From a virus (lineage: Duplodnaviria; Heunggongvirae; Uroviricota; Caudoviricetes): DNA of 47,890 bases. The DNA lies in the IMG/VR virus record IMGVR_UViG_2671180896_000002. One strand, written 5' to 3'. A program made the position numbers and the translations under genes. Shown piece by piece: positions 1 to 47,890 of this stretch (its first letter is position 1; each line of letters begins with the position of its first letter). The notes below the pieces were generated by a model. It was not told the DNA's origin. It saw nothing but the letters and a program-made list of their open reading frames with translations, and made no database searches.

Positions 1-1667
1 TTGCCAGGGATATCCGCACCGTTCTTATCTTTCTGCAGACGTTTCTCAGCATTGTCATTGGCTGCTTTTACTGCCTTTGGTGTTGCTGCCAGCGTTTCAG
101 ACGTGCTGTTGGTCGCGCTGCTTAGCTGGACTATCCCTTTCTGTGCTGTCGTTGCATCCTGTGCGGTGTATTTCCCGTCAGCCAGGTCATACGCGGCCTT
201 AACGGCTTTTGGCGTTGCCGCCAGTGACTCGGAAGTGCTGTTGGTCGCACTGCTGAGCTGTACTATCCCCTTTTTCGTCGTGCTCGCATCCTCAAGCGCC
301 ACGGCGGATGCAATATCCTCTGCCCGTTTTGCCGCTGTCTCAGCGCGCGTTGCCGCGGATTCCGCCGTACTTTTGCTCTGTGCTGCCGCCGTCGCACTGC
401 CAGCTGCCTCTGTCGCCTTCGTGGATGCTGTCGTGGCGCTGCCCTTCGCTGCGGACGCTTGTCTGGTCGCCTCATCTTTTGAAGCAGACGCCGATGATGC
501 CGATGACGCCGCCGAACTGGCGGACGATGCGGCAGCCGTTTTTGAGGATTCTGCGCTGGTTTCCGACGCTTTCGCGTTCGTCTCGGATGTCTTCGCTGCG
601 GAAGCAGACCTCGCTGCTGCGCTGGCCTGTTCAGTGGCTTCGCCAGCCTTCGTTGTGGCTGTTGAAGCAGACGATGCGGCACTTTCTGCCGATTTTCCGG
701 CGGCGGTGGCACTGGCTGAGGCCTGCCCGGCACTTGTTGACGCGGCACTGGCAGACGACGCAGCCGCTGTTTTTGAGCCTGCCGCAGCCGAGGCGCTCTG
801 TCCCGCTGCCGTTTCAGAAGACCTGGCGTTTGTCTCAGACGTCTTTGCCGCCTTCGCGGAATTGCCTGCCGCCGTTGCCGAGGAAGCGGCACTACTGGCG
901 CTTGATGATGCGTTCGTTTCTGATGATTTCGCTGCCTCTTTTGAGGCCGCCGCATCCCGGGCTGAGGTGGCTGCTTCTGACGCCTTCGTGGTCGCGGCGG
1001 ATGCAGAAGTGGCTGCTGATTGTTGTGACGCTGCCGCATTCGTTTCTGACGTTTTCGCCGCAGCGGCACTGGTAGCTGCCGCGCTTTTTGAGGACTCTGC
1101 AGCAGCAGCACTTTTCGATGCTTCACTGGCCTTTGTTGATGCCGTTCCTGCGCTGGAAGATGCTGACTGAGCCGACGACGCGGCCTGTCCGGCTGACGTG
1201 CTGGCTGCGCGTGCTGAGCCTGCAGCATCAGTCGCATGGGTTGCCGCCTCACGGGCTGATGTGCTGGCATCGCTGGCTGACTTCTTCGCGACTGCCGTGT
1301 TCTGTGCCACCGCGGACGCGTTACGCGCCACCTCTTCCACCATCAGTTCAAAACGGCGCAGTGCCTCAGGACGGGCATCATCCTCCGTCATGGCACCGAG
1401 AAAATCATTCAGCGTACCGGGTTGAGAATCTTCATACACGGTGATGGTCCCGGCATGTGACGGCGGGAATCCTTCCACCAACAGAATAACGCTGTACTGC
1501 CCGTACTCAACGTCCATGCTGTAACGCCCGGCTTCATCCGGATTTTCTGAGGCCAGCGTGTTCACCACCACCGTGGTGCTGTTACGTTTTGCTTTCAGCT
1601 GGATTGTGCAGTTCTGTACCGGTTTTCCTGTGCCGTCTTTCAGTACACCTGAAATCTTTACTGCCAT
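1..1667 (-). CDS. stf: Side tail fiber protein, N-terminal ~555 aa (3' end of gene lies beyond window start)
   Basis: Reverse complement of 1441-1667 translates MAVKISGVLKDGTGKPVQNCTIQLKA..., the lambda Stf N-terminus; ATG at 1665-1667 (minus). Followed by Ala/Ser-rich repetitive sequence. Position downstream of lom as in lambda/Rac. Confidence 0.85.
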   Translation of the reverse strand, partial: MAVKISGVLKDGTGKPVQNCTIQLKAKRNSTTVVVNTLASENPDEAGRYSMDVEYGQYSVILLVEGFPPSHAGTITVYEDSQPGTLNDFLGAMTEDDARPEALRRFELMVEEVARNASAVAQNTAVAKKSASDASTSAREAATHATDAAGSARAASTSAGQAASSAQSASSSAGTASTKASEASKSAAAAESSKSAAATSAAAAKTSETNAAASQQSAATSASAATTKASEAATSARDAAASKEAAKSSETNASSSASSAASSATAAGNSAKAAKTSETNARSSETAAGQSASAAAGSKTAAASSASAASTSAGQASASATAAGKSAESAASSASTATTKAGEATEQASAAARSASAAKTSETNAKASETSAESSKTAAASSASSAASSASSASASKDEATRQASAAKGSATTASTKATEAAGSATAAAQSKSTAESAATRAETAAKRAEDIASAVALEDASTTKKGIVQLSSATNSTSESLAATPKAVKAAYDLADGKYTAQDATTAQKGIVQLSSATNSTSETLAATPKAVKAANDNAEKRLQKDKNGADIPG

Positions 1668-1678
1668 ATTCACCCCAC

Positions 1679-1705
1679 AAAAAAGCCCGCCTGAACCGGC
1701 GGGCT
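1679..1705 (-). terminator. Rho-independent terminator-like hairpin between lom and stf
   Basis: Minus strand reads AGCCCGCC-GGTTCA-GGCGGGCT followed by TTTTTTG; 8-bp GC-rich stem plus T-run immediately after the lom stop. Confidence 0.6.
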
Positions 1706-1731
1706 GTCATAACACTGTGTTACCTGGCTAA

Positions 1732-2331
1732 TCAGAATTTATAACCAACACCCACGATGAACCCGTCAGTGCGCCAGTCACCACTGCCGGAGCCTTCATA
1801 AGCGACATCAATGGCCACGGATTCGGTCGGGTTAAACTGCACGCCAGCTCCCCACGCCAGAGACGTGTTGCTGTGGCGACCGTCATCACTTCCGGTCAGC
1901 ACATCGTGCGTTTTCCCCTTATTGTCAGTTACGCGGAGATAATCCCCGGAGAAAGTCGACACACGGCTGTAAGCCACACCCGCCATCGCATACGCGCTGA
2001 ACCATTCATTCACGCGTACAGACGGCCCCGCCATCACGCTGAACCAGCGGTTACGCACGGAATCTTCATACCAGCGGGTATCGCTGTAACGGGTCAGCTG
2101 GCGATTCTTGTCTCCTGCATAGCTGAACGACGTCACCATCCCCAGTGTGTCCGTAAACTCATAACGGTATTTCACGTTAATCCCGTTAAGATCATCGCTG
2201 CCGGGAACGTTCGTCGAGGCATGAAGATACCCCGCGCTCAGCGTGGACTGATGTTCAGATGCCCATGCAGGCGCACCGGATACGGCCAGACAAATGGCTG
2301 CGGAAAAAATGGCGGCATAAAGTTTACGCAT
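1732..2331 (-). CDS. lom: Lom/Ail-family outer membrane protein (lysogenic-conversion moron)
   Basis: 199-aa ORF MRKLYAAIFSAAICLAVSGAPAWA... with signal peptide and aromatic C-terminus (GVGYKF) typical of 8-strand OMP beta-barrels; lambda lom position between J and stf. Confidence 0.9.
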   Translation of the reverse strand: MRKLYAAIFSAAICLAVSGAPAWASEHQSTLSAGYLHASTNVPGSDDLNGINVKYRYEFTDTLGMVTSFSYAGDKNRQLTRYSDTRWYEDSVRNRWFSVMAGPSVRVNEWFSAYAMAGVAYSRVSTFSGDYLRVTDNKGKTHDVLTGSDDGRHSNTSLAWGAGVQFNPTESVAIDVAYEGSGSGDWRTDGFIVGVGYKF

Positions 2332-2354
2332 AATTACCTCTCGCTTTTCTGCAA

Positions 2355-2400: not shown

Positions 2401-5400
2401 TCAACGAATACTGATGCCGGAAGCGGCTTTTTTGGTCACAATCACCGTACAGTCGGTGATATTGCCTGCCCCCTGATTGCCTTTCTGGAAAATCTTAAAC
2501 TCCAGAGTGACGCTACCACCACCACTAGGCATATCAATAACTGCACTGTAACTACCGGGAATGGCCCCTTTAGTTTCTCTGGATGCGATTAATACGCCGT
2601 TTTTGCGAACTTCAAAACCATAACCCGTGTATCGCGTGCCTCCTGGGTTATTTCCGCTCCCCGGATCGTCATACGCTATACCGTTAAAAATAATGGGCGG
2701 AATAATAATCTGGCGGTCAAAGTTATGATCATCGCTGATGGTGACTGTAACCGTACCGTTTGGTGTTTCCGTGTTACCCCACGTACCGACTTTTTTCGGG
2801 AAGGCTTTTGATACAGCTTTAACGAAATCCCCTCTGACCTGGGTCGCCTCCAGCATGCCCTTAATCGTACAGTTCTGGTTAATCGTGACATTGTTGAGCG
2901 TTCCTGAGTTCGCATTCACACTACCACTGATATCCGCATTTTTAGCGGTCAGCTTTCCGTCTGATGTCAGGGAAAATACCGGAGGACTGCCACCGCTGGT
3001 AATGGTGGGGGCTGTCAGGCGCTTCAGGAACACGTCGTTCATGAATATCTGGTTGCCCTGCGCCACAAACATCGGCGTTTCATTCCCGTTTGCCGGGTCA
3101 ATAAACGCGATACGGTTAGCGGCAACCAGAAACTGGCTCAGCTTGCCTTCCTCCGTGTCCTCCATGCTGAGGCCAATACCCGCGACATAATGTTTGCCGT
3201 CTTTGGTCTGCTCAATTTTGACGCCCCACATGGCATTCCATTTATCGTTAGCGTCCTTCCACTCTTTCGAAAACTCATCCAGTCTGCTGGCGTTATCCTC
3301 CGTCAGATCAACTTTTTCCAGCAGCTCTTTACCGAGATGGGATTCGGTTATCTTGCCTTTGAAAAAATCCAGGTAACCTTCCGCATCATCGCTCGCCCGA
3401 CCGACAGCCTCCACGAATGCCGATTTGCCAACGGTGTTCACACTGCGAACGTAAAAATAATAATCATGGCCCGGTTTGATATTGATACTGGCGGCTATCC
3501 AGTACAGCGCCGTACCAAGATAGCGGGCTGTGGTTTCAACCTGCCTGATATCGGTAATCCGCTTTTCCGAGAACCAGAACTCAAACTGTACCGTCGGGTC
3601 ATAAACAGCAAGATGCGGCGTGGCGGTTATCTGAAAATAGCCCGGCGTCAGCTCAATCCTCGACGGTGCTGCCGGTGCGGCAATCCGGAACGATACCGAC
3701 GCCGGATCACCCTGCTGCCCCCGGGCATTTACCGCCCGGACTGTCAGCCTGTAGTTCCCCAGCGCCAGTTGCGTGAAGCGGTATGTGGTTTCCGTCGTCC
3801 GGGCCGTGCTGACCAGCCGCTCACTGCCGTCGTCCGCTGTTACGGTCAGACGGAGCAGGAAGCTCACGCCCTTCACCACCTTCGGTGTGTCCCATCGAGC
3901 CAGCACCTGGTATTCCCCACTGTCTGCGGTGACTTCTGCGGTCAGGTGCTGCACCGCTGGCGGCGTGACACCATTCACCGTGCCGCTCTGGTCGCCGTCA
4001 AAGTGCGCCCCGTTATCCACGATGGCTTCTTTTTCCGGTACATGCTGCACGGCAGTGATGGCATACGTGCCGTCATCGTTCTCACGGATACTCACACAGC
4101 GGAACAGGCGCTGACGCAACGTCGGCAACTTCAGCCCCCACACACTGTATTCTGCAACGCCGTCAGGAACCCGGTTCACTTTCACCTTAAGTCCGTCGGT
4201 GACGGACTGAACCTCCACGCTGACCGGATTACCACTTCCGTCAACCAGGCTTATCAGCGTGGTACCGGAGGATGGCAGCGTGATTTCACGGTCGAGCGTC
4301 AGCGTCCGGGTCTGGCTGTTCACCGCCAGCACGCGACCACCGGTGCTGATACCGGCATAGTCATCATCGCAGATTTCAATGACATCGCCCGGTACATGGC
4401 GAAGCCCTTCAGCACCCACGCTGAAATCCACGGTCTGCGTTTCCAGCAGTTCCGTTTTAATCAGCCACAGCCCGGCTCGGTGTGCCTGCCCCCGACTGGT
4501 ACAACCAAAGGCATCCATCTTCGTGACATTACGACCGTAACGGGCAATGGCCTGCGTATCTTCAACAAGCTCTGTCGCCGTCTCCCAGCCGTTGTTCGGG
4601 TCAATCCAGTTCACCTCAACGGCATTATGGCGGTCCTTCAGGGCGCTGAAGCTGTAGCGGAACGGCGCGCCATCATCCGGCATCACCACATTACTGCGGT
4701 TATAGGTCCACACCTTATCCGACGGTCGGTCCTGCACGAACGTCAGCGTCTGCCCGTTCCATACCGGCATACAGCGCATCGCCGAGCAGAAATCACTGAG
4801 CACATCCCACGCCTTACGCTGTGTGGTCAGGTACGCATTACAGGTGATGCGCGGCTCCGTGCCGCCAAAGCCGTCCGGCACTGACTGGTCGCAGTACTGG
4901 CCGATGACATACAGCGCCCATTTGTCCACATCCGCCGCACCAAGACGTTTCCCCATGCCGTAGCGTGGATGGCTCAGCATATCCCACAGACACCAGGCCA
5001 TGTTATTGCTGTATGCTGGCTTAAACGTTCCGTCCCAGATACCGCTGTATTGCCGCGTCTGCGGGTTATAGTTCGACGGCACCTGCAGAATACGCCCGCG
5101 CAGATGATAATTACGGCTCACCTGCTGGCTGCCGAACTGCTCCGAATCCACCTGCACGCCGACCAGTGCCGTGTTCGGGTAGCACTGTTTCACATCGATG
5201 ATTTCGGTGTATGACGACCAGAGCGTTTTGTTCTGCAGCTGGTCTGTGGTGCTGTCCGGCGTCATCCTGCGCATCCGGATATTGAACGGGCGCGGCGGCA
5301 GGTTACCCACCACCACCGATGCCAGATACTGTGAGGTGGTTTTGCCTTTAATGGTGATGTCTTTTTCCGTCACCCAGCCACCGTTACGCTGTATCTGAAC

Positions 5401-5814
5401 CAGCAGGCGGACTTCCGACGGATTCCGGTCCCCCTTTGAGGTGGTTTCCACCAGTGCCTGCACACCGAAGGTAAAGCGCAGACGGTCAATGTTTGCCGAC
5501 GTGATGGTCCGGGTAATCGGCGTGTCGTACTTCACTTCCGTACCCAGCACCGTCTCGGAGCCGGAGGATTCAAATCCCTCCGGCGGTGTCTGCTCCTGCT
5601 CACCTGCCCGGAAAACCACCGTGACACCGGAGATATTGGTATTCCCCTCACTGTCCAGCACCGGCGTACTGTTCAGCAGCACACTTTTTAATCCGTCCAC
5701 CGGACCTTCAACCGGCCCTTCACTGATGGCGTCTATCACGCTCAGCATCTGGGATGATTTCAGGTTGTCCTTCGCTTCGCGCGGGGTATGCCCCTTACTG
5801 CTGCCTTTACCCAT
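2401..5814 (-). CDS. J: Host specificity protein J (central tail fiber / tail tip)
   Basis: 1137-aa ORF starting [34 protein letters not shown]..., recognisable as lambda gpJ; gene order I-J-lom. Confidence 0.95.
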
Positions 5815-5874
5815 TCCTCACGCTCCATAAACGACAAAACCGCCCGGAGGCGGTTTCACATAAAACGTTTTTCA

Positions 5875-6522
5875 TCAGCGACCAATCACCACAACCTGAC
5901 CACCATCCCCTTCGTCTGCCGTGCTGATCTCCTGAGAGACCACCCGCGACCCCACGCGCATTTCACCGTACAGAACGGGCAGAACATTGCCCTGGGCAAC
6001 CATGTTATCCAGTGACGAGAAATACGTGTTCTGTTTGCCGTTATCTGTACTGGCTGCCGTGGGCGTCCTGGCTTTCGGTGCCAACATCTGCGCCACACCG
6101 CCCAGGATCATACTGGCCCCTGCCGCATACATACCCGATACAGCCGTGGCCCCCAGCCAGCCCACAGGGTTCCACCATGCAACCGCAATCAGCGCCGCCC
6201 CCAGCACTGCCTGAAAAATACCGCCACTTTTAGCACCCGCCGGACGCGGTACGATGTGGATCACGGCACCATTTTCCAGCGGCTCATTAAGACGGGCAGA
6301 CAATTCAGTTTCACCTGCATCACGCCCGGCAATGCGTACCTGGTACCAGCCGTCGCTCAGTTTCTGACGAAATGCCGGGATCTGCATGGCCAGCGCCCGG
6401 ATGGCTTCGGACCCCGTTTTCACTCGAAGGTCGATGCGGCGGCCAAATCGTTGTAAATCCCCGTAAAGGCAGATGCGTGCCATGCCCGGTGACGCCAGAG
6501 GGAGTGTGTGCGTCGCTGCCAT
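5875..6522 (-). CDS. I: Tail assembly protein I
   Basis: 215-aa ORF MAATHTLPLASPGMARICLYGDLQRFGRRIDL... ending ...TADEGDGGQVVVIGR, lambda gpI-like; precise start uncertain because the ORF overlaps the upstream K ORF by 103 nt. Confidence 0.85.
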   Translation of the reverse strand: MAATHTLPLASPGMARICLYGDLQRFGRRIDLRVKTGSEAIRALAMQIPAFRQKLSDGWYQVRIAGRDAGETELSARLNEPLENGAVIHIVPRPAGAKSGGIFQAVLGAALIAVAWWNPVGWLGATAVSGMYAAGASMILGGVAQMLAPKARTPTAASTDNGKQNTYFSSLDNMVAQGNVLPVLYGEMRVGSRVVSQEISTADEGDGGQVVVIGR

Positions 6523-7163
6523 TTGTCGGTGTACCTCTCTCGTTTGCTCAGTTGTTCAGGAATATGGTGCAGCAGCTCGCTGTCACCACAGTAAATGGCG
6601 GCATGATTCGGCACCGATGAACCAAAACAGCACAGCAGCACATCGCCCGGCTGCGCCGCTGACAACGGCACCTGATACAGCCCTGTGGCCTCCAGATTAT
6701 CCAGATAGAGATTCTGACCGTGACGCCACCAGTTATCCCCGCGATGAAAATCCGGCATCTCAATTCCCGCCAGATGGTAAGCGTCCCGGAACAGCGTGTA
6801 ACAGTCCGTCACCCCGTGCTCAAAGCGCCGCCCGGTGAGATGCGGCACACAGCGGAATTTATGAATCGCCCCCCGGCAGACCAGCCACCACGGCAAATCA
6901 CTCTGTACCTGCAGCCGCCGGTCGGCCTCACTCAGCCAGGGCAGACCACCGGGGTGGCTGTGGACCAGCGCCACAATCTCTCCCTGCATTTCTGCACTCA
7001 GCCAGTCCTCCGGCGACATCCGGAAATACGCCTCCGGCTCACCGGAGATATTCACGCAGGGAAAATATCTTTCCTCCTCCGGCGTTCTCACCACGAAGCC
7101 GCACGACTCCGCTGGCGCACATCGCCGGGCGTGCGCCAGAATCGCTGATTCTGTCTCTGTCAT
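6420..7163 (-). CDS. K: Tail assembly protein K (JAMM/MPN plus NlpC/P60-like domains)
   Basis: 247-aa ORF MTETESAILAHARRCAPAESCGFVV... with HSHP metal-binding motif; lambda gpK-like, between L and I. Confidence 0.85.
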   Translation of the reverse strand: MTETESAILAHARRCAPAESCGFVVRTPEEERYFPCVNISGEPEAYFRMSPEDWLSAEMQGEIVALVHSHPGGLPWLSEADRRLQVQSDLPWWLVCRGAIHKFRCVPHLTGRRFEHGVTDCYTLFRDAYHLAGIEMPDFHRGDNWWRHGQNLYLDNLEATGLYQVPLSAAQPGDVLLCCFGSSVPNHAAIYCGDSELLHHIPEQLSKRERYTDKWQRRTHSLWRHRAWHASAFTGIYNDLAAASTFE

Positions 7164-7168
7164 GGGAT

Positions 7169-7867
7169 TTACTGCGAAAGTTTGTTAATGGAAAGGAAGC
7201 TGCCAAAGTTGCCGACATTATTGCGAAACTTACAGCCACTCAGGCATTTGCTGCATTTATCCTTCGTGATATCGGACGTCGGCTGGTCATATTCATCCGC
7301 GACCGCCGGACCGCTATAACCGCACTCATCGCCGCGATAGGTCCAGGTGCAGGTGTTGGCCAGCATGATACGTCCCGGAAAAACAGCGCCATCCGTTTCA
7401 GTCGGCGTGGACAGTACAAAAGAGGCACTGACCGCGCTCAGTTCGCTGCACTGCTCGATGCGCCAGCGGCTGATCACCTCCTGCTCCGGATCGGCTTCGC
7501 TGTTTCCGTTGACGAAGTTCACCGCATCCAGAAAGCGGGCGTAAACCTTACGCCGGACCACCGTTCCGCCGACCAGACTCTGCAGATCTTCCGCCATCCC
7601 GGTGATCATGCCGTGCAGGTTAGAGACCGTCAGTGTCGGACGGGCAGCACTGCCCTTGCCGTTCATCTCAAATCCACTCCCCTGAATGGGATAGGCCTGA
7701 TACTGCCGACTCTGCCAGGTGACAGACTCACCTTTTTCGTTCTGCTCATTACAGAAAAAGTAGCGATCCCCACCTACCTCGGTCAGGTCGATTTCCCAGA
7801 GCACCACGCTGGCCGACTGCTCCGCACGAATGCATTCATTCAGCGTTTCCTGTTGTATGTCCTGCAT
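7169..7867 (-). CDS. L: Minor tail protein L
   Basis: 232-aa [34 protein letters not shown]... with C-terminal Cys cluster (CTWTYRGDECGY...KCSKCLSGC); lambda gpL-like. Confidence 0.9.
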   Translation of the reverse strand: MQDIQQETLNECIRAEQSASVVLWEIDLTEVGGDRYFFCNEQNEKGESVTWQSRQYQAYPIQGSGFEMNGKGSAARPTLTVSNLHGMITGMAEDLQSLVGGTVVRRKVYARFLDAVNFVNGNSEADPEQEVISRWRIEQCSELSAVSASFVLSTPTETDGAVFPGRIMLANTCTWTYRGDECGYSGPAVADEYDQPTSDITKDKCSKCLSGCKFRNNVGNFGSFLSINKLSQ

Positions 7868-8205
7868 CAGATCACCACTTCGTCAAACTGACACGAAAAA
7901 TCGGTATAGGTGATATGTTCTGTCGCTGACCACGTTCGACACACCACTCTGATTTTTCTGTTAATACCCGGCGGGCGCCAAAAAAAAGATTTATAGCCTT
8001 CATGCCGGGCTAAAAATTTTTCAAATGAATCACGTTCATTCGCCTCAACTTTGAAATCACAGGTGAAAACGCGCAGAGAATGATTAAGTCCATTTGGACT
8101 TCGTTGCTCATAACCATCGCCAAATCTTACAGTTTTTATCGATGGTTTATTTTCTGTTTTCATTCCATCCTCTGGTAACCAGTGAAATTCTTCCGTATTA
8201 GCCAC
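7867..8205 (-). CDS. Minor tail protein M-like (divergent from lambda M)
   Basis: 112-aa ORF between H and L containing the [10 protein letters not shown] motif shared with lambda gpM (VRFGDGYSQR); locally AT-rich DNA, start/stop overlaps with H and L. Confidence 0.7.
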
Positions 8206-13375: not shown

Positions 13376-13401
13376 AGGAGCCTCCTATGTCATTAATTGC
13401 G

Positions 13402-14950: not shown

Positions 14951-14953
14951 GTG

Positions 14954-35995: not shown

Positions 35996-36143
35996 CGCCT
36001 TTTCGGGCGGCCTCCTGATGATTTGAGAGTGCAGAAATTCCTCCGGTTAAGGACTCTATTTTATTCACAGTGCTGAATTTAATTATTCAGATTTGGATTA
36101 TGCTTTCTCTTTCACTTCACCAAGTTCCGATTATTAATTTGGC

Positions 36144-36566: not shown

Positions 36567-36582
36567 AAGCCCTCCCCTAGAA

Positions 36583-37332: not shown

Positions 37333-37354
37333 TAAATTTTTCTCCCGGTAAAAA

Positions 37355-38101
37355 TTACTTCGCAATTCCTGGCTGGACGACATTCGGACGCCAGCTCTCC
37401 CAGTTAAAATTCACCCAACGCCCGCCGTTCATGGTCATGCGATCCATAATCCTCTCGCCGAGCAATGGTTTCATGGCCTCATAGTTCAGGTTTGTCAGCA
37501 TTCCCACGCTACGCATCGACGCTGTCCGTCGATCAATAATCTGGTGCAGTACCACCTGCTCGTTTTTCGTCTCGCGCTGAATGCCAATTTCATCAAGAAC
37601 CAGCAGATCCACTTCGCACAGCTCCCGCAAAAATTTTTCGCCTGACTGCCCGTCGTCATAGCTGGCGTGCAGGGCGCTCATAACATCAGCCACGGTAACC
37701 ACAATCACTGTCTGACCGTCTTTCAGCAGGCGATTCCCGATAGCTGCCGCTAAGTGATTCTTCCCGGTACCAGGTTTTCCGCTGAACGCAAAATTTGTAC
37801 ACCCGGTCATCAGTTCATCGGCGATGGATTTCGCCTGGCTTAACGCGTATCGCTGCCCTTCGTTCTGCACCTGGTAATTCGCAAACGAGCATTTGCGGTG
37901 CAACGGCTGGATGCCAGAGCGATTCAGGATTTTTTCCACCCGCAACTGACGATTCAGGCGGTTGATCTCCTCGCAACGTTTCTGGCCTTCAGCAAGTTGC
38001 CACTCGCGCCACTCCGCAACCGTTCTGAATGGGGCGGTTACATGTGGTGGGGTCAGTCTGCGGATACGCTCCAGAACGCCTCCTGTCGCAATATTTTTCA
38101 T
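37355..38101 (-). CDS. ydaV: DnaC-like helicase loader / replication protein (IstB-like AAA+ ATPase)
   Basis: 248-aa ORF with Walker A ([15 protein letters not shown]) and Walker B (LLVLDEIG); same size and position as Rac YdaV. Confidence 0.8.
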
Positions 38102-38107
38102 GGCCTG

Positions 38108-38973: not shown

Positions 38974-39396
38974 TCAATGCACTACGACAGAATCGCTAGG
39001 AGAACCGCCGCCGCTGAAATGTGCTTTACGGTAAACGGCCTGGACTGCATCATCATGCGCATCAATTGCCGTACTCAGTGCATCCTGTGCCGCCAGTAAT
39101 GCACGGCGTTCCAGGGTATCGAAGATGCAGAGTCGGTGACGCAGCTCGCGAGGAAGAATTGCCAGAACCGCAGGGATCAGTTTCTGAATTTTTTCCCTTT
39201 GCGCATTCGTTTCACCTTTCAACCAACGATGATAGATATTCTGCTGATTGTTCCAGTCCTTGCCTGGTACCAGGGGCAATTCGCCGCCCCCCTGGCGCAG
39301 ATATTCTTCAGTAATTGCGTTAGCGACCCACGCCTGCCCTTTTTCGGCTGCCAGGGCTAACAACACTGATTCGATGTGCTCATGCTTGATTTTCAT
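38974..39396 (-). CDS. ydaT: YdaT-like protein (Rac immunity-region protein, reported toxic partner of YdaS)
   Basis: 140-aa ORF, 4-nt overlap with the upstream Cro-like gene; size and position match Rac YdaT. Confidence 0.6.
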   Translation of the reverse strand: MKIKHEHIESVLLALAAEKGQAWVANAITEEYLRQGGGELPLVPGKDWNNQQNIYHRWLKGETNAQREKIQKLIPAVLAILPRELRHRLCIFDTLERRALLAAQDALSTAIDAHDDAVQAVYRKAHFSGGGSPSDSVVVH

Positions 39397-39647
39397 GAAT
39401 CAACTCCCATCAGCTTTTTCGTAGTAGTTTTATTTCTGCCAATAGTTAAAATTGCATCGGCAGAAAATAATCCGTTTGATGCATGAGCGATTTTTTCAGC
39501 GTAATTTGTTTCGCCGGTATATTCTGTGCGAGGCAATTTTCCGTTATCCATCCATTTGTAGATTGCTCTTTGGCTGACACCACAAACGTCGGCCACAACA
39601 GAAACGCGAACAGTTTTGATTACATCTTCAAGTGTTTTCTGGTTCAT
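39393..39647 (-). CDS. ydaS: Cro/YdaS-like HTH regulator
   Basis: 84 aa from MNQKTLEDVIKTVRVSVVADVCGVSQRAIYKWMDNGKLP (HTH) with GAGGGTG SD (supplied ORF extends to 39719); divergent from the racR-like gene. Confidence 0.6.
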   Translation of the reverse strand: MNQKTLEDVIKTVRVSVVADVCGVSQRAIYKWMDNGKLPRTEYTGETNYAEKIAHASNGLFSADAILTIGRNKTTTKKLMGVDS

Positions 39648-39726
39648 ATCACCCTCACAATGTGAACTTTGAGTACATGCTATAACAGAACTGACAGTAC
39701 ATTCAAGAGCGAATATCATTGAACTT
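39648..39726. promoter_or_regulatory. OR-like divergent promoter/operator region between ydaS and racR
   Basis: Plus strand CTGACA(39691-39696)-17 bp-TATCAT(39714-39719) ending 7 nt before the racR ATG (leaderless, cI/PRM-like); minus-strand TTGAAT-16 bp-TATAGC toward ydaS; AGTACAT motif at 39672-39678 and 39696-39702 overlapping promoter elements. Confidence 0.5.
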
Positions 39727-40146
39727 ATGGTTCATGAAGATAAAGCGCGTAAAGAGTTCGCCAGTAGGCTTGCGCTAGCCTGTGAAAACGCTGGTTATGA
39801 ACAACATGGAAGGCAGGCAGAAATTGCCCGTCGAATGAAATTAACACCAAAAGCGGTTAGCAAATGGTTTAATGGTGAAACAATTCCTCGCCGAGAGAAA
39901 TTAAGGGAATTAGCAACACTCATTGGAACAACACCAACCTATCTTTTGGGAGAGGATACAGAAGAAAGTGGACAGATACGTTTCTATCAGGAGTTAAATC
40001 CAAGACAAAAAATCATCATTGACCTTCTGGACGAGCTCCCTGACAGTGAGACAGATGAACTTTTAAAAACTCTTGAGGAGAAAAAACAGAAGTACAATGC
40101 AATTTACGAAGAGTTAGCACGAAAGAAAAAACAAAAAGCCTCTTAA
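39727..40146 (+). CDS. racR: Prophage repressor, RacR-like (HTH; no obvious C-terminal peptidase domain)
   Basis: 139-aa ORF with HTH (RQAEIARRMKLTPKAVSKWFNGETIP), divergent from the cro-like gene, no SD; position equivalent to Rac racR. Confidence 0.6.
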   Translation: MVHEDKARKEFASRLALACENAGYEQHGRQAEIARRMKLTPKAVSKWFNGETIPRREKLRELATLIGTTPTYLLGEDTEESGQIRFYQELNPRQKIIIDLLDELPDSETDELLKTLEEKKQKYNAIYEELARKKKQKAS

Positions 40147-40270: not shown

Positions 40271-40433
40271 TACCAACCCACCCCGCCCCACAGAACGCCG
40301 GGCAATACTTCGAGTTACCAGGCAGTGGTCAGGGGTTAAGTAGCCAGCCCGAGGCGTATGAACATGACGGCGGGATTCAAATTTTGCAGTGCAGCAGTTA
40401 GTTCCGCCACCCGGCGTTAAGGGGATAGATAAG

Positions 40434-40568
40434 ATGGTGCATTACGAAGTAGTTCAGTATTTGATGGATTGTTGCGGTATCACTTACAACCAGGCTGTGC
40501 AGGCTTTACGCAGCAACGACTGGGATCTCTGGCAGGCAGAAGTCGCTATACGTAGCAACAAGATGTGA
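40434..40568 (+). CDS. ydaG: Small Rac early protein YdaG (44 aa)
   Basis: Below the track cutoff: MVHYEVVQYLMDCCGITYNQAVQALRSNDWDLWQAEVAIRSNKM; first gene after the pL-like promoter. Confidence 0.7.
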   Translation: MVHYEVVQYLMDCCGITYNQAVQALRSNDWDLWQAEVAIRSNKM

Positions 40569-40578
40569 GGTTCGCAAA

Positions 40579-40734
40579 ATGCAAAAAATCGACCTCGGCA
40601 ACAACGAATCCCTGGTGTGCGGCGTGTTCCCCAACCAGGATGGAACGTTCACTGCCATGACGTATACCAAAAGCAAAACATTTAAAACCGAAACTGGTGC
40701 GCGCCGATGGTTGGAGAAGCACACAGTAAGCTAA
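40579..40734 (+). CDS. ydaF: Small Rac early protein YdaF (51 aa)
   Basis: Below the track cutoff: MQKIDLGNNESLVCGVFPNQDGTFTAMTYTKSKTFKTETGARRWLEKHTVS; stop overlaps the convergent sieB stop. Confidence 0.7.
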   Translation: MQKIDLGNNESLVCGVFPNQDGTFTAMTYTKSKTFKTETGARRWLEKHTVS

Positions 40735-41219
40735 CGATTAAAACGTCTACTCCTGCTGTTCCAGAATAACTTCATAAAATGGGAGTATTTTTCGGTGACG
40801 AGATAATAAGAACAGTTTGCGCTATCACTCTGATGTTGAATGATGCCCTTCCGTTCTAATTTTTTCATAACCGGGTTACGGCAAGGAGAAGTGATAATAA
40901 GATTTCCTGTTTTAAGGAAATCTTTAAATACAGCGATTTCTTTCTCAGATAAACGAAGCAATACTCGTTGCTCTGGCAGTAATGAATAATGCTTTTGAAT
41001 ATGTGCTCGCAATCTTGAGAAGGAAATGGCGACCACGAAAGAAAAGGCAAAAACGATAATCTGAAAGAGCCAAGGTATTTCAGTATAAGCATTGAATGCG
41101 ACAGTAAACTCTTTCGGTATCAGCCAGAGAGTGAGACCAAAAATGATAATCGTATACATAAGTCTTTCGAGTGGCTCGTTAGCAAAAAGTTTCAACAATG
41201 GAGTAAATACATCCAACAT
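40731..41219 (-). CDS. sieB: Superinfection exclusion protein B
   Basis: 162 aa from MLDVFTPLLKLFANEPLERLMYTIIIFGLTLWLIPKEF... with two N-terminal TM helices (supplied ORF extends to 41342); opposite strand within the early operon as in Rac/lambda. Confidence 0.8.
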   Translation of the reverse strand: MLDVFTPLLKLFANEPLERLMYTIIIFGLTLWLIPKEFTVAFNAYTEIPWLFQIIVFAFSFVVAISFSRLRAHIQKHYSLLPEQRVLLRLSEKEIAVFKDFLKTGNLIITSPCRNPVMKKLERKGIIQHQSDSANCSYYLVTEKYSHFMKLFWNSRSRRFNR

Positions 41220-41660
41220 ATCAATAACTCTCAACTGTAAGGGTATTGAAATGTTAACACAAGCTCTCGCTGTAGGGGTATAGCCGAGACCACCGAAGCC
41301 CGGAGGTGGTGAAATAAAACCGGGCACAACACGAAGGCGCATTTCCGATATCCATAAAGAGTCGGTCTTGTCTGTTAAATTTAAATGGTGGGAGTGCGCC
41401 TCCGGTTGTAAATAACGACATTGCTGTGTGTAGTCCTGGCGGCATCAGTTTTTTTCTTGAAGTTCGGCTGATGTCCGCCCTTTTTAAAGTGAATTTTGTG
41501 ATGCGGTGAATGCGGCTAAGCGCACGTGGCACAGTTAAAAGTCATGTTAGTCCTTATTGGTTTGGGTGGGAAAGCCGACTGTAATTGTTAACTGGTTGCA
41601 GTCACCTGGAGGCACCAGGCACCGCATCAACAAAGTTCATTTGTAAAAATGGAGATAATT

Positions 41661-41882
41661 ATGATTGCACATCACTTCGGAACTGATGAAATACCACGTC
41701 AGTGTGTGACTCCTGGCGATTATGTTCTTCATGAAGGCCGGACATATATTGCCTCGGCAAACAATATTAAAAAGCGAAAACTATATATTCGTAACCTGAC
41801 CACAAAAACATGCATTACTGACCGCATGATTAAAGTCTTCCTCGGTCGTGATGGTTTACCTGTAAAGGCGGAGTCATGGTGA
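41661..41882 (+). CDS. kilR: Killing protein KilR (FtsZ-ring inhibitor)
   Basis: 73 aa [73 protein letters not shown]; matches Rac KilR. Confidence 0.85.
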
Positions 41883-42052
41883 TGACTAAGAAAATAAAAT
41901 GTGCTTACCACCTTTGCAAAAAAGACGTTGAAGAAAGCAAAGCTATTGAAAGAATGCTTCACTTCATGCACGGGATTTTATCAAAAGACGAACCGAGAAA
42001 ATATTGCAGTGAAGCTTGTGCCGAAAAAGACCAGATGGCACATGAACTTTAA
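41882..42052 (+). CDS. ydaE: Small Cys-rich protein YdaE (56 aa)
   Basis: Below the track cutoff: [59 protein letters not shown] overlaps the kilR stop (TGATG). Confidence 0.7.
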   Translation: MTKKIKCAYHLCKKDVEESKAIERMLHFMHGILSKDEPRKYCSEACAEKDQMAHEL

Positions 42053-42126
42053 TTAATTGACTATTCGAAACTGAATTTATGCCAGAAATGGCAGGTATTC
42101 GCTCAACCTTAATTAAGGAGAAAAAC

Positions 42127-42402
42127 ATGATTACCAATTATGAAGCCACTGTTGTAACTACCGATGACATTGTTCACGAGGTGAATCTGGAAGGAAAGCG
42201 CATTGGCTACGTAATTAAAACAGAAAATAAAGAAACCCCATTCACTGTGGTTGATATCGATGGTCCATCAGGCAACGTAAAAACACTTGATGAAGGTGTC
42301 AAAAAAATGTGCCTGGTGCATATCGGAAAGAATCTGCCCGCAGAAAAAAAAGCCGAATTTCTGGCAACTCTAATTGCAATGAAATTAAAAGGTGAAATCT
42401 GA
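42127..42402 (+). CDS. racC: RacC protein
   Basis: 91 aa from MITNYEATVVTTDDIVHEVNLEGKRIGYVIK... with AAGGAG SD (supplied ORF starts earlier at 42079); immediately upstream of recE. Confidence 0.8.
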   Translation: MITNYEATVVTTDDIVHEVNLEGKRIGYVIKTENKETPFTVVDIDGPSGNVKTLDEGVKKMCLVHIGKNLPAEKKAEFLATLIAMKLKGEI

Positions 42403-42503
42403 AAGAAATAGCCTGCGTATGGCGCAGGCTATGAACAGTGTGTATCCGGCAAGATCATTCACTGAACAAAACGAATTTTAATCTGAGTTGAGGTTAAAAA
42501 ACA

Positions 42504-45104
42504 ATGAGCACAAAACCACTCTTCCTGTTACGGAAAGCGAAAAAATCATCCGGTGAACCTGACGTCGTCCTGTGGGCAAGCAACGATTTTGAATCGACCT
42601 GTGCCACTCTGGACTACCTGATCGTTAAGTCAGGTAAAAAACTGAGCAGCTATTTTAAAGCTGTTGCCACGAATTTTCCTGTCGTTAATGACCTGCCCGC
42701 TGAAGGTGAGATCGATTTTACCTGGAGTGAACGCTATCAACTCAGCAAAGACTCCATGACATGGGAACTAAAACCGGGAGCAGCACCAGACAACGCTCAC
42801 TATCAAGGCAATACCAACGTCAACGGCGAAGACATGACTGAGATTGAGGAGAATATGCTACTCCCAATTTCTGGCCAGGAACTGCCCATTCGTTGGCTTG
42901 CTCAACACGGCAGCGAAAAACCGGTAACGCACGTTTCACGCGACGGACTCCAGGCATTACACATTGCTCGGGCTGAAGAACTACCGGCTGTTACTGCCCT
43001 GGCTGTTTCCCACAAAACCAGCCTGCTCGACCCGCTGGAAATTCGCGAACTCCACAAACTGGTTCGTGACACTGACAAAGTTTTCCCTAATCCTGGTAAT
43101 TCAAACCTGGGACTGATAACTGCTTTTTTCGAAGCATACCTGAACGCTGACTACACCGATCGAGGACTGCTGACAAAAGAGTGGATGAAGGGTAATCGTG
43201 TTTCACACATCACTCGCACGGCTTCCGGTGCTAATGCTGGCGGCGGAAACCTCACCGATCGCGGCGAAGGTTTCGTACACGATCTGACGTCACTGGCGCG
43301 CGACGTAGCCACTGGCGTACTGGCCCGTTCAATGGATCTGGACATCTATAACCTTCATCCGGCACACGCTAAACGCATTGAGGAAATTATCGCTGAAAAT
43401 AAACCGCCCTTTTCTGTTTTCCGCGACAAATTCATCACCATGCCTGGCGGGCTGGATTATTCCCGCGCCATCGTGGTTGCGTCCGTAAAAGAAGCACCAA
43501 TTGGGATCGAGGTCATCCCCGCGCACGTCACTGAATATCTGAACAAAGTACTGACTGAAACCGATCATGCCAACCCTGATCCGGAAATCGTGGATATTGC
43601 CTGCGGTCGCTCCTCTGCCCCGATGCCGCAGCGAGTAACAGAAGAAGGAAAACAGGATGATGAAGAAAAACCGCAACCATCTGGAACAACGGCAGTTGAA
43701 CAGGGAGAGGCTGAAACAATGGAACCGGACGCAACTGAACATCATCAGGACACGCAGCCGCTGGATGCTCAGTCACAGGTAAATTCTGTTGATGCGAAAT
43801 ATCAGGAACTGCGGGCAGAACTCCATGAAGCCCGGAAAAACATTCCATCAAAAAATCCTGTCGATGCCGATAAATTGCTTGCTGCATCACGTGGTGAATT
43901 TGTTGACGGAATTAGCGACCCGAACGATCCGAAATGGGTAAAGGGGATCCAGACTCGCGATTGTGTGTACCAGAACCAGCCAGAAACGGAAAAAACCAGC
44001 CCAGATATGAATCAACCTGAGCCAGTAGTGCAACAGGAACCGGAAATAGCCTGCAATGCCTGCGGCCAGACTGGCGGGGATAACTGCCCTGACTGTGGTG
44101 CGGTGATGGGCGACGCAACATACCAGGAAACATTCGCTGAAGAGAGTCAGGTTGAAGCTAAGGAAAATGATCCGGAGGAAATGGAAGGCGCTGAACATCC
44201 GCACAATGAGAATGCTGGCAGCGATCCGCATCGCGATTGCAGTGATGAAACTGGCGAAGTCGCAGATCCCGTAATCGTAGAAGACATAGAGCCAGGTATT
44301 TATTACGGAATTTCGAATGAGAATTACCACGCGGGTCCCGGTATCAGTAAGTCTCAGCTCGATGACATTGCTGATACTCCGGCACTATATTTGTGGCGTA
44401 AAAATGCCCCCGTGGACACCACAAAGACAAAAACGCTCGATTTAGGAACTGCTTTCCACTGCCGGGTACTTGAACCGGAAGAATTCAGTAACCGCTTTAT
44501 CGTAGCACCTGAATTTAACCGCCGTACAAACGCCGGAAAAGAAGAAGAGAAAGCGTTTCTGATGGAATGCGCAAGCACAGGAAAAACGGTTATCACTGCG
44601 GAAGAAGGCCGGAAAATTGAACTCATGTATCAAAGCGTTATGGCTTTGCCGCTGGGGCAATGGCTTGTTGAAAGCGCCGGACACGCTGAATCATCAATTT
44701 ACTGGGAAGATCCTGAAACAGGAATTTTGTGTCGGTGCCGTCCGGACAAAATTATCCCTGAATTTCACTGGATCATGGACGTGAAAACTACGGCGGATAT
44801 TCAACGATTCAAAACCGCTTATTACGACTACCGCTATCACGTTCAGGATGCATTCTACAGTGACGGTTATGAAGCACAGTTTGGAGTGCAGCCAACTTTC
44901 GTTTTTCTGGTTGCCAGCACAACTATTGAATGCGGACGTTATCCGGTTGAAATTTTCATGATGGGCGAAGAAGCAAAACTGGCAGGTCAACAGGAATATC
45001 ACCGCAATCTGCGAACCCTGTCTGACTGCCTGAATACCGATGAATGGCCAGCTATTAAGACATTATCACTGCCCCGCTGGGCTAAGGAATATGCAAATGA
45101 CTAA
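42504..45104 (+). CDS. recE: Exodeoxyribonuclease VIII (RecE)
   Basis: 866-aa ORF (same length as K-12 RecE) with acidic central linker and C-terminal nuclease domain; followed by overlapping recT. Confidence 0.9.
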
Positions 45105-45906
45105 GCAACCACCAATCGCAAAAGCCGATCTGCAAAAAACTCAGGGAAATCGTGCACCAGCAGCAGTTAAAAATAGCGACGTGATTAGTTTTATTAACCA
45201 GCCATCAATGAAAGAGCAACTGGCAGCAGCTCTTCCACGCCATATGACGGCTGAACGTATGATCCGTATCGCCACCACAGAAATTCGTAAAGTTCCGGCG
45301 TTAGGAAACTGTGACACTATGAGTTTTGTCAGTGCGATCGTACAGTGTTCACAGCTCGGACTTGAGCCAGGTAGCGCCCTCGGTCATGCATATTTACTGC
45401 CTTTTGGTAATAAAAACGAAAAGAGCGGTAAAAAGAACGTTCAGCTAATCATTGGCTATCGCGGCATGATTGATCTGGCTCGCCGTTCTGGTCAAATCGC
45501 CAGCCTGTCAGCCCGTGTTGTCCGTGAAGGTGACGAGTTTAGCTTCGAATTTGGCCTTGATGAAAAGTTAATACACCGCCCGGGAGAAAACGAAGATGCC
45601 CCGGTTACCCACGTCTATGCTGTCGCAAGACTGAAAGACGGAGGTACTCAGTTTGAAGTTATGACGCGCAAACAGATTGAGCTGGTGCGCAGCCTGAGTA
45701 AAGCTGGTAATAACGGGCCGTGGGTAACTCACTGGGAAGAAATGGCAAAGAAAACGGCTATTCGTCGCCTGTTCAAATATTTGCCCGTATCAATTGAGAT
45801 CCAGCGTGCAGTATCAATGGATGAAAAGGAACCACTGACAATCGATCCTGCAGATTCCTCTGTATTAACCGGGGAATACAGTGTAATCGATAATTCAGAG
45901 GAATAA
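45097..45906 (+). CDS. recT: Single-strand annealing recombinase RecT
   Basis: 269 aa from [28 protein letters not shown]...; start overlaps recE stop by 8 nt (supplied ORF begins upstream at 45040). Confidence 0.9.
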
Positions 45907-45962
45907 TTCAGCCTGGCGGTGTAATGCACCGCCAACTTGAAATATTTTTTATGAGAAAAATT

Positions 45963-46157
45963 ATGAGATATGACAATGTTAAACCATGTCCATTTTGTGG
46001 TTGTCCATCAGTAACGGTGAAAGCCATTTCAGGATATTACCGAGCGAAGTGTAACGGATGCGAATCCCGAACCGGTTATGGTGGAAGTGAAAAAGAAGCA
46101 CTCGAAAGATGGAATAAACGAACCACTGGAAATAATAATGGAGGTGTTCATGTATAA
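45963..46157 (+). CDS. ralR: Restriction alleviation protein Lar/RalR (type I TA toxin, Zn-finger DNase)
   Basis: 64 aa MRYDNVKPCPFCGCPSVTVKAISGYYRAKCNGCESRTGYGGSEKEALERWNKRTTGNNNGGVHV with CxxC...CxxC. Confidence 0.85.
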   Translation: MRYDNVKPCPFCGCPSVTVKAISGYYRAKCNGCESRTGYGGSEKEALERWNKRTTGNNNGGVHV

Positions 46158-46359
46158 AATTACCGCCACTATTGAAAAGGAAGGTGGCACTCCTACTAAC
46201 TGGACAAGATATTCAAAATCTAAACTAACGAAATCAGAATGCGAAAAAATGCTCTCAGGTAAAAAAGAAGCAGGCGTTTCCAGAGAGCAGAAAGTAAAAC
46301 TGATAAATTTTAATTGCGAGAAACTTCAGTCCTCGAGAATTGCATTGTATTCAAATTAA
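46150..46359 (+). CDS. ydaC: YdaC-like small protein
   Basis: 69 aa MYKITATIEKEGGTPTNWTRYSKSKLTKSECEKMLSGKKEAGVSREQKVKLINFNCEKLQSSRIALYSN; ATG overlaps ralR end. Confidence 0.75.
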   Translation: MYKITATIEKEGGTPTNWTRYSKSKLTKSECEKMLSGKKEAGVSREQKVKLINFNCEKLQSSRIALYSN

Positions 46360-46437
46360 AACTTCATAGCTGATTATTAATAATCAACATCGGGCGTCAA
46401 TTTCAGTCTAACATTGGCGCCTGCCAGAGGTGATGCG

Positions 46438-46653
46438 ATGGCACAAGTAATCTTTAATGAAGAGTGGATGGTTGAATACGGCCTGATGCTTCGCACTGGT
46501 CTGGGGGCCAGACAAATTGAAGCATACCGCCAGAACTGTTGGGTGGAGGGCTTCCACTTCAAACGAGTATCTCCTTTAGGTAAGCCAGACAGCAAACGAG
46601 GGATTATCTGGTACAACTATCCAAAGATAAATCAGTTTATCAAAGACTCATGA
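46438..46653 (+). CDS. xisR: Excisionase (XisR)
   Basis: 71 aa [46 protein letters not shown]...; stop abuts the int start. Confidence 0.8.
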
Positions 46654-46654
46654 T

Positions 46655-47890
46655 ATGTCTAAATTACCAACAGGTGTCGAGATTAGAGGTAGATACATTC
46701 GCATCTGGTTCATGTTTCGAGGAAAACGATGTCGGGAAACATTAAAAGGCTGGGAGATTACAAACAGTAATATTAAAAAGGCCGGAAATTTAAGAGCGCT
46801 GATAGTTCATGAAATAAACTCCGGTGAATTTGAGTATTTAAGACGTTTTCCCCAGTCCAGCACTGGGGCAAAAATGGTGACAACGAGAGTCATAAAAACG
46901 TTCGGAGAGCTTTGTGATATCTGGACAAAAATTAAAGAGACAGAGTTAACAACAAACACAATGAAGAAAACGAAATCACAATTAAAAACACTCAGAATAA
47001 TAATTTGTGAAAGTACCCCGATATCACATATTCGTTATAGCGATATCTTAAACTACCGGAATGAACTGCTGCATGGAGAAACGCTTTACCTGGATAATCC
47101 AAGATCCAACAAAAAAGGAAGAACCGTGCGCACAGTTGATAACTATATCGCCCTGCTCTGTTCGCTGTTGCGTTTTGCGTATCAGTCGGGATTTATATCA
47201 ACCAAACCATTTGAAGGAGTAAAAAAATTACAGCGAAACAGAATAAAGCCTGATCCGTTATCTAAAACAGAATTCAATGCATTAATGGAAAGTGAAAAAG
47301 GACAGAGCCAGAACTTGTGGAAATTTGCCATTTACTCAGGACTTCGTCACGGGGAACTGGCAGCTCTGGCGTGGGAGGATGTGGATCTCGAAAAGGGAAT
47401 AGTGAATGTCAGAAGAAACCTGACGATACTTGATATGTTCGGTCCCCCAAAAACAAATGCCGGGATCCGAACAGTAACACTACTGCAGCCTGCTCTTGAA
47501 GCACTGAAGGAGCAATACAAACTGACCGGGCATCATCGCAAAAGCGAAATCACCTTTTATCATCGGGAGTACGGCAGAACCGAAAAGCAAAAACTGCATT
47601 TTGTTTTCATGCCCAGGGTGTGTAACGGAAAACAAAAACCTTATTACTCGGTAAGCAGTTTGGGGGCAAGGTGGAATGCAGCAGTAAAACGTGCTGGTAT
47701 TCGCCGCCGTAATCCGTACCATACGCGGCATACTTTTGCCTGCTGGCTGTTGACGGCAGGAGCGAACCCGGCATTTATAGCCAGCCAAATGGGGCATGAA
47801 ACTGCGCAGATGGTGTATGAAATTTACGGTATGTGGATTGATGACATGAACGACGAACAGATAGCCATGTTGAATGCGCGGTTATCGTAG
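46655..47890 (+). CDS. intR: Tyrosine-type site-specific integrase (IntR)
   Basis: 411-aa ORF with C-terminal catalytic region (...HTRHTFACWLLTAGANPAFIASQMGHETAQMVYEIYGMW...); stop codon is the last triplet of the window. Confidence 0.9.
   Translation: MSKLPTGVEIRGRYIRIWFMFRGKRCRETLKGWEITNSNIKKAGNLRALIVHEINSGEFEYLRRFPQSSTGAKMVTTRVIKTFGELCDIWTKIKETELTTNTMKKTKSQLKTLRIIICESTPISHIRYSDILNYRNELLHGETLYLDNPRSNKKGRTVRTVDNYIALLCSLLRFAYQSGFISTKPFEGVKKLQRNRIKPDPLSKTEFNALMESEKGQSQNLWKFAIYSGLRHGELAALAWEDVDLEKGIVNVRRNLTILDMFGPPKTNAGIRTVTLLQPALEALKEQYKLTGHHRKSEITFYHREYGRTEKQKLHFVFMPRVCNGKQKPYYSVSSLGARWNAAVKRAGIRRRNPYHTRHTFACWLLTAGANPAFIASQMGHETAQMVYEIYGMWIDDMNDEQIAMLNARLS

Follow-up and report, generated by a model that had tools for sequence, protein, structure and literature searches.

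An apparently coding-complete Escherichia coli prophage of the Rac lineage, and the internal deletions that appear to separate K-12 Rac from it

Is the 47,890-nucleotide (nt) virus record IMGVR_UViG_2671180896_000002 an intact relative of the Rac prophage that Escherichia coli K-12 carries, and what can it tell us about how K-12 Rac came to be incomplete? An earlier note, made from the letters of this whole stretch (hereafter the window), described it as an apparently intact Rac-family prophage of which the K-12 element is a deleted remnant. Comparing the window with K-12, with other sequenced E. coli genomes and with protein and RNA family profiles, we find that it very probably holds most of a temperate lambdoid siphovirus prophage, ~52 kb at full length, that belongs to the Rac lineage and is located at the 5’ end of ttcA. 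Membership of the Rac family is borne out by alignment to K-12, with 99.86% DNA identity over the 7.6-kb early-left arm. To judge by its genes the E. coli prophage appears coding-complete, where “intact” refers to open reading frames only.

The ~60 consecutive genes of the window lie mostly on the minus strand (Table 1). Its left edge falls inside the side tail fibre gene and its right edge coincides exactly with the intR stop codon, so the element is longer than the window, a point that the earlier note did not mention: both att sites lie outside, and with them roughly 4 kb comprising the remainder of stf, tfaR, pinR, ydfK/ynaE and ynaM. No tRNA genes were found within the window. A megablast search against 5426 complete E. 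coli genomes showed positions 24000-47890 to be essentially identical to CUVET20-1667, where the element spans ~52.1 kb between uspF/ompN and ttcA, the site of K-12 Rac. In that genome intR abuts ttcA, and a 26-bp core, AAGAAAGAACAATACAACCTGAACAA, where ttcA begins recurs next to uspF (ttcA/ttcC-type); this is the att repeat of the near-identical genome, the att sites having been expected beyond the window end. Positions 1-24000 are at best 99.4% identical to other strains, and 679 of the 5426 genomes have at least 80% of this stretch in one place; for the right half the corresponding number is only 36 genomes, because its cargo and immunity genes vary. Identity to CUVET20-1667 is only ~91%, and patchy, in the left 3.4 kb, and differences are concentrated at 3-15 kb. 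The possibility that the window is CUVET20-1667 itself was ruled out by direct comparison, the left part being only about 91-99% identical.

Aligning MG1655 1408000-1438000 to the window with BLAST recovered eight collinear segments (Table 1). Three stretches of the window are absent from K-12: 26245-36895 (10.6 kb), 12254-23815 (11.6 kb) and 2127-10497 (8.4 kb), together 30.6 kb, whose loss took away, respectively, the Q/nin/holin/endolysin region, the genes from ParB to tail tube, and those from tape measure to lom. Overlaps at the K-12 junctions are 0-2 nt, and all three junctions interrupt genes that are whole in the window, while the late remnants of K-12 (rzpR/rzoR, trkG, ynaK, ydaY, ynaA, lomR and stfR) keep the window’s order at 96-99.7% identity. 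Because the junctions lie inside genes whole in the window and the remnants are collinear, deletion in the K-12 lineage is the parsimonious direction. Of the 5426 genomes, 348, 338 and 345 contain the respective K-12 junctions, which occur together in one consistent minority, and the undeleted late region is twice as common (679/5426 genomes).

This map assigns the K-12 orphans ynaK, ydaY, ynaA, ydaW and rzpR to parent genes, confirming an earlier suggestion that several K-12 Rac genes are fragments of larger ones (a ParB-like nuclease gene, the tape measure gene and ydaW) and extending it to rzpR. By protein BLAST, ynaK (87 amino acids, aa) corresponds to residues 1-86 of the 263-aa ParB-like protein; ynaA (342 aa) starts with residues 1-312 of the 1077-aa tape measure protein, at 98.7% identity; ydaW (186 aa) opens with residues 1-151 of the DUF1627 protein, as numbered from its annotated start, a shared part that falls at residues 18-164 of the gene’s 266-aa longest open frame; and rzpR is the last 99 of the 158 aa of Rz. 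The ydaY gene is nearly complete in K-12, and lomR lacks its 5’ part and carries IS5, with K-12 matching only window positions 1916-2127 and 186-1920 there. The deletions of K-12 Rac can thus be mapped exactly on the window, and the alignments support the view that K-12 Rac would be this lineage after three internal deletions totalling 30.6 kb.

The late region was said to hold a full set of lysis, packaging, head and tail genes together with trkG, and it does. Open, profile-length frames (PHROG) are present for M, the G-type chaperone, tail tube, terminator, completion, head closure, adaptor, capsid, scaffold, MuF-like protein, portal, TerL, TerS, the glycosyltransferase, the ParB-like protein and two TolA-like proteins; Rz, endolysin, holin, Lom, I, J, K, L, tape measure and the N-terminus of Stf, as well as integrase and excisionase, are likewise open and span their PHROG profiles almost completely. 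Within the lysis cassette Rz1 is intact and 98.4% identical to K-12 RzoR, and the side tail fibre matches PHROG tail-fibre families from profile position 1 and is 96% identical to K-12 stfR. No frameshift or internal stop was found in the late genes of the window, the finding on which the earlier note had made its reading of an intact prophage depend, and the repressor/cro, replication, late activator, lysis, terminase, portal, capsid, connector, tail and tail tip genes are all uninterrupted. The tail chaperone is arranged in the classic way: a -1 frame, open between 11939 and 11595, overlaps the 3’ part of G at an intact slippery heptamer, A AAA AAG (11909-11915).

Three flags raised in CUVET20-1667 by the Prokaryotic Genome Annotation Pipeline (PGAP) were considered and rejected for the window. 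M, called “frameshifted” in that genome, is here an open 112-aa frame: at position 7980 the window has a run of eight A (A8) against seven (A7) in CUVET20-1667, where the shorter run is either a sequencing error of the assembly or real decay. The “partial” ParB/ynaK is a 263-aa frame covering its phrog_620 profile (Table 1), and the “partial tolA” is a full-length member of phrog_5772.

Two further descriptions of the late genes were offered, of which the lambda-like tail tip stands in full (M, L, K, I, J, lom and stf, by PHROG family) and the SPP1-like packaging and head module in part. The order TerS, TerL, portal, gp7/MuF-like, scaffold, major capsid, read on the minus strand from 22161 to 15173, is that of SPP1, and a MuF domain (PF04233, Phage_Mu_F) is present; Pfam, however, does not assign the portal and capsid to the SPP1 Gp6 family but to PF13264 (DUF4055 portal) and PF11651 (P22-type coat). 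The head and packaging genes match PHROGs 283, 784/206, 241, 145, 2/10250, 51 and 309, and the connector and tail genes match PHROGs 290, 179, 169, 161, 493 and 1514 near full length. Among solved structures the portal has three matches (best E=1e-17), none identifiable as SPP1 gp6, and the coat and TerL have none. On these assignments, “SPP1-like” seems acceptable only as a description of gene order. As a separate observation, guanine plus cytosine (G+C) content steps at ~8 kb, from 57-58% in J-I-K-L to 43-49% from the tape measure onward.

In the early region, the list of diagnostic Rac genes first drawn up for the window is largely right and fails at the immunity genes. The proteins of intR, xisR, rcbA (another name for ydaC), ralR, recT, recE, racC, ydaE, kilR, sieB, ydaF and ydaG are all 98.6-100% identical to those of K-12, and ydaT, ydaV and trkG are 94%, 96% and 100% identical. 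Resemblance between the replication initiator and YdaU is limited to the C-terminal 124 aa (81% identity). Neither racR nor ydaS is in the window: BLAST found no DNA match to MG1655 1419619-1420677 in the window, no window protein matched at E<=1e-3, and tblastn returned nothing credible even at E<=10. Two helix-turn-helix (HTH) proteins occupy their positions: a DicA-like repressor of 139 aa, which is an HTH_3 protein weakly similar to the DicA repressor family, and a small Cro-like protein that is unrelated, with three 17-nt operator-like repeats at 39663-39736 in the intergenic region.

Strain S42 carries the same element with K-12-type racR/ydaS/ydaU, and the window differs from S42 only at 38362-40271, whose flanks stay >99.8% identical. 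Since the difference is confined to that interval, it points to a clean module exchange and to a heteroimmune relative; the immunity type of the element is not that of K-12. Rac-site prophages with a K-12 left arm can carry another immunity, which is relevant to how racR/ydaS “toxin” phenotypes are read.

How such an element might work can be sketched from lambdoid organisation, from which we infer the regulatory circuit. The prophage would be kept silent by the DicA-like repressor, bound to the three operator-like sites that separate its own gene from the divergent cro-like one. Derepression would release leftward transcription of kilR, recET, ralR, xis and int, and rightward transcription of cro, the cII-like ydaT, the initiator, the DnaC-like loader, the nin-type genes and a Q-type antiterminator. 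Q would then drive a single long operon of late genes, which starts with the TolA-like genes and goes on through lysis, trkG, the ParB-like/glycosyltransferase pair, terminase and head to connector and tail, and in which a programmed -1 frameshift would yield the G/GT chaperone pair.

Two Q-family genes stand in series, at 35465-35995 (minus strand, PF06530 type) and 29245-29787 (minus strand, DUF1133 type), separated by convergent cargo, hok/sok and an insertion sequence, IS421. Downstream of the DUF1133 gene, a consensus promoter followed by a hairpin and T-run (28874-28798, minus strand) lies ~350 nt upstream of the STnc100 match; together with the STnc100 region, this pair could constitute a Q-dependent late promoter and terminator. 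The TolA-like genes lie between the late activator and the holin, a position held by LT-II toxin genes in Rac-SA53 (LT-IIa, between Q and the lysis genes) and by two tRNA genes, between Q and holin, in the relative ON470595.

IS421, which the earlier note did not mention, occupies 31126-32462. Its ~23-bp inverted repeats, GC-rich target duplication, single transposase gene and ~1.34-kb length are those of the IS421/IS186 group. The 12-bp target duplication, GGGATTTCTCCC, falls in the group’s range of 10-13 bp and is present at 31114-31125 and 32463-32474; the element’s own terminal inverted repeat is ~23 nt, CATAAGCGCTAACTTAAGGGTTG, and the 37-nt complementary arms include the duplicated target. 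The site is empty in strain S42, and the transposase is annotated in CUVET20-1667. The insertion lies within a GC hairpin, GCGGGGATTTCTCCCCGC, ~12 nt 3’ of the hok stop codon, and may have altered the 3’ end of the hok mRNA; it may also exert polarity on the nin and Q genes downstream of it. Chromosomal hok loci of K-12 are said to have been found by Pedersen and Gerdes in 1999 to be flanked by IS186/IS150 insertions.

Several observations weigh against seeing here a working temperate phage with an ancestral Rac late region, and the first group of them favours an element that is coding-complete yet functionally dead, grounded by IS421 polarity, by a defect in a regulatory or packaging site, or by an uninducible repressor. 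Lying in the rightward operon, with the replication genes on one side and the DUF1133 Q gene on the other, IS421 could be polar, and with two serial Q-family genes the real late activator is uncertain. The repressor has no peptidase (autocleavage) domain by Pfam, so SOS induction may need another factor, and the Rac-like prophage KingRac is weakly induced (PMC6731689). M is frameshifted in the closest genome, which would place decay under way in the lineage, and no virion-derived sequence of this type was found in the phage collection searched. Set against this are the ~60 consecutive open frames that cover their profiles, with the programmed frameshift site preserved, and a late region 99% conserved in 679 genomes. 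IS421, moreover, is intergenic with its target duplication intact, a simple insertion, and Q-modified transcription normally passes through terminators. A grounded prophage is therefore a serious candidate, to which we give slightly less than an even chance, and we regard the predicted ability of the element to be induced and to form particles as evenly poised.

The second group concerns ancestry. The left 8 kb is off in both G+C content and identity (96-97% to K-12; 91%, patchily, to CUVET20-1667), and the step in G+C with the low similarity of the left 3.4 kb suggests that the tail-tip/fibre block was exchanged by recombination among Rac-site prophages; this block (J to M, and stf) may have been so exchanged, and “ancestral” cannot be claimed for the part that K-12 lost. 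That the whole is a recent mosaic, in which recombination joined a Rac early arm to the late region of an unrelated lambdoid element, and is uninformative about the ancestor of K-12 Rac, is improbable: lambdoid prophages are mosaic, the immunity/initiator region has been exchanged relative to K-12 and S42, G+C steps at ~8 kb, and Rac-SA53 and KingRac carry different late or early modules, but the K-12 remnants (rzpR/trkG/ynaK at 99.7%, ydaY/ynaA at 98.6%, lomR/stfR at 96-97%) agree with the window in order and orientation, and every K-12 junction breaks a gene that is whole in the window, which would be unexpected with an unrelated late region. The mosaic account is largely refuted for 10497-12254 and 23815-26245, and remains for the deleted interiors, chiefly 2127-8200.

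Table 1. Features of the window and its segments shared with K-12 Rac (window coordinates).
Feature	Position	Strand	Evidence and remarks
Side tail fibre gene (stfR-type), N-terminal 555 codons	1..1667	-	Frame starts MAVKISGVLKDG at 1667
Lom outer-membrane protein, whole	1732..2331	-	phrog_108 1-199/199
Lambda-type tail tip J, I, K, L, M	2401..8205	-	PHROG families; 57% G+C block
Tail tape measure protein, 1077 aa	8198..11431	-	phrog_24
Tail assembly chaperone pair (G/GT analogue; K-12 ydaY = G part)	11595..12364	-	phrog_313
Tail tube, terminator, completion, head closure, head-tail adaptor, 58-aa protein	12413..15130	-	
Head/packaging: major capsid, scaffold, MuF-like, DUF4055 portal, TerL, TerS, 83-aa protein	15173..22416	-	
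TAGT-family glycosyltransferase, 317 aa	22352-23305	-	PF20691, E=8e-35
ParB/Srx-like protein, 263 aa	23277-24068	-	phrog_620 3-217/217
trkG potassium transporter, cargo	24206..25681	-	100% identical to K-12 TrkG; G+C ~0.39
Lysis cassette: Rz with embedded Rz1 (25863-26045), endolysin, holin	25801..27031	-	PHROGs 13, 7, 20/9876
Two paralogous TolA-C-terminal-like genes	27226-27621, 27772-28200	-	phrog_5772 full length twice
STnc100 RNA match	28311-28497	-	Rfam RF02076, 86.6 bits
DUF1133 Q-like antiterminator, DUF1364, DUF1367 (NinB-like)	29245..30673	-	phrog_753, 131, 319; PF06576
IS421 (IS186-like, IS4 family)	31126..32462	+	1337 bp; terminal inverted repeats and direct repeat
hok/sok toxin-antitoxin locus	32486..32810	-	Rfam sok 99.4 bits; Hok/Gef annotation
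Cargo cassette: NA37 homologue (352 aa) and overlapping 477-aa protein	32971..35434	+	35% G+C
Second Q-family gene (PF06530), DUF977/Ren-like, DUF1627, DnaC-like YdaV, replication initiator	35465..38896	-	
Immunity region: cII-like ydaT, Cro-like HTH (39393-39719, -), DicA-like repressor (39727-40146, +)	38974..40146		
ydaG, ydaF, sieB (-), kilR, ydaE, racC, recE, recT, ralR, rcbA	40389..46359		98.6-100% protein identity to K-12
RalA antitoxin RNA	46156-46334	-	Rfam, 225 bits
XisR and IntR	46414..47890	+	XisR 100%, IntR 99.8% identical to K-12; both match PHROG families (excisionase, integrase)
K-12 segment: lomR and stfR	186-2127		DNA identity 96-97%
K-12 segment: ydaY and ynaA	10497-12254		DNA identity 98.6%
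K-12 segment: rzpR/rzoR, trkG, ynaK	23815-26245		DNA identity 99.7%
K-12 segment: ydaU 3’ half, ydaV, ydaW 5’ part	36895-38481		DNA identity 93.3%
K-12 segment: ydaT	38976-39402		DNA identity 92.5%
K-12 segment: intR to ydaG	40271-47890		DNA identity 99.86%; MG1655 1412000-1419618

The cargo, together with the ParB-like/glycosyltransferase pair, makes up the only parts of the element that might repay further work. Within the plus-strand cassette, the first gene encodes an NA37 (YejK-like) nucleoid-associated protein (PF04245, E=4.8e-13, full profile) and overlaps by 29 nt the gene for a 477-aa protein that has ~100 homologues. In all three distant contexts (Methylomonas, Sphingomonas and Citrobacter) an NA37 gene precedes the homologue of the 477-aa protein with a ~30-nt overlap, once beside an integrase. 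The 477-aa protein has strongly hydrophobic C-terminal segments at ~364-388 and ~428-452, and its structural model (mean predicted local distance difference test, pLDDT, 87.7) combines an N-terminal half of alpha/beta type with long helices in the C-terminal part; it belongs to no NCBIfam or PHROGs family, and its model gave no specific fold match in the PDB. PANGU type II defence combines a nucleoid-protein sensor with a membrane effector (bioRxiv 10.64898/2026.04.06.716658), and the architecture of the cassette matches it: a YejK/NA37-like gene in a two-gene operon with a gap under 40 bp, as here, and a partner whose N-terminal domain is soluble and whose C-terminal domain is transmembrane, as predicted here. 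The likeness to Pag2A/Pag2B is one of described architecture. PADLOC (2.0.0, 2023) gave no match for the NA37 cassette, sieB, the TolA-like genes or hok.

An overlapping pair of ParB-like and TAGT genes recurs in Lactobacillus phage phi jlb1, Nocardia phage NTR1, the haloarchaeal virus HHTV-2 and L. delbrueckii phages. It stands directly before TerS-TerL-portal-minor head protein in phi jlb1, directly before TerL in NTR1 and ~3 kb upstream of the terminase genes in HHTV-2; in the E. coli prophage, one small gene separates it from the terminase genes. Protein identity across the E. coli prophage, the Lactobacillus and Nocardia phages and the haloarchaeal virus is 33-47%, and the ParB-like partners align over their whole length, conserved C-terminal domain included, at 33-42%. 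TAGT enzymes are otherwise associated with the hydroxymethyl-cytosine pathway, and no genes of that pathway were found near the pair. A literature search found no description of a ParB-plus-TAGT pairing. The pair might be an undescribed system of tailed viruses for DNA (or protein) glycosylation, or one linked to packaging, that dispenses with the hydroxymethyl-cytosine pathway, an idea we think rather unlikely and offer tentatively.

That full-size, even infectious, Rac-like prophages exist at ttcA, and that K-12 Rac is a deleted remnant, is already known and nothing new. K-12 Rac has been described as incomplete and as intact in EDL933, with a Rac-site prophage in 69% of 638 strains (review, PMC6379469). 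CP-933R and Sp10 of E. coli O157:H7 are Rac-like, lie at ttcA and have kept their replication machinery (PMC4632033), and full-sized Rac-like prophages with LT-II toxins are attributed to Jobling 2016, as cited in PMC5917428. KingRac, a 46.8-kb Rac-like prophage at ttcA, displaced K-12 Rac in the mouse gut (PMC6731689, PMC12251178); treated with mitomycin C it forms tailed particles, and in the mouse gut it lysogenises K-12 (Frazao et al. 2019, PMC6731689). The late region of the window, for its part, occurs in hundreds of sequenced E. coli genomes. As candidates for isolated phages of this type, vB_EcoS-683R6, vB_EcoS-666R9 and relatives, and Salmonella phage SPF_0923 were rejected, being predicted prophage regions with host-gene ends, and so say nothing in favour of viability.

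Beside these relatives, the element of the window has most in common with the 23-kb K-12 Rac (MG1655 1411899-1434958), with which it shares integrase, excisionase, early-left arm, trkG, Rz/Rz1, lom, stf and the chromosomal site. K-12 Rac differs in lacking the 30.6 kb, in the IS5 in lomR, in its racR/ydaS immunity and in another N-terminal half of ydaU; the window, unlike K-12 Rac, has IS421, hok/sok, the NA37 cassette, two Q-family genes and the TolA-like genes. Rac-SA53 (KU052037) and CP-933R/Sp10 resemble it in being full-sized, in the ttcA site and in intR, recET and ydaU/V/W-type genes, and Rac-SA53 covers 50% of the window’s early region at 93% and 9% of window 8000-32000 at 85%. By its published gene table, KingRac has a shorter recE (1974 nt) and no trkG, and on that table it is a different mosaic. 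Given the KingRac gene table and the small share of the late region held by Rac-SA53, the window is the variant closest to K-12 Rac, which is only a difference of degree. With bacteriophage lambda it shares the general plan of a temperate lambdoid phage, a lambda-type tail tip (M, L, K, I, J, lom, stf) and the G/GT frameshift. It departs from lambda in the head and packaging genes (DUF4055 portal, MuF-like protein, scaffold, P22-type coat, long TerS), in having recET where lambda has red, and in its ydaU/ydaV-type replication genes.

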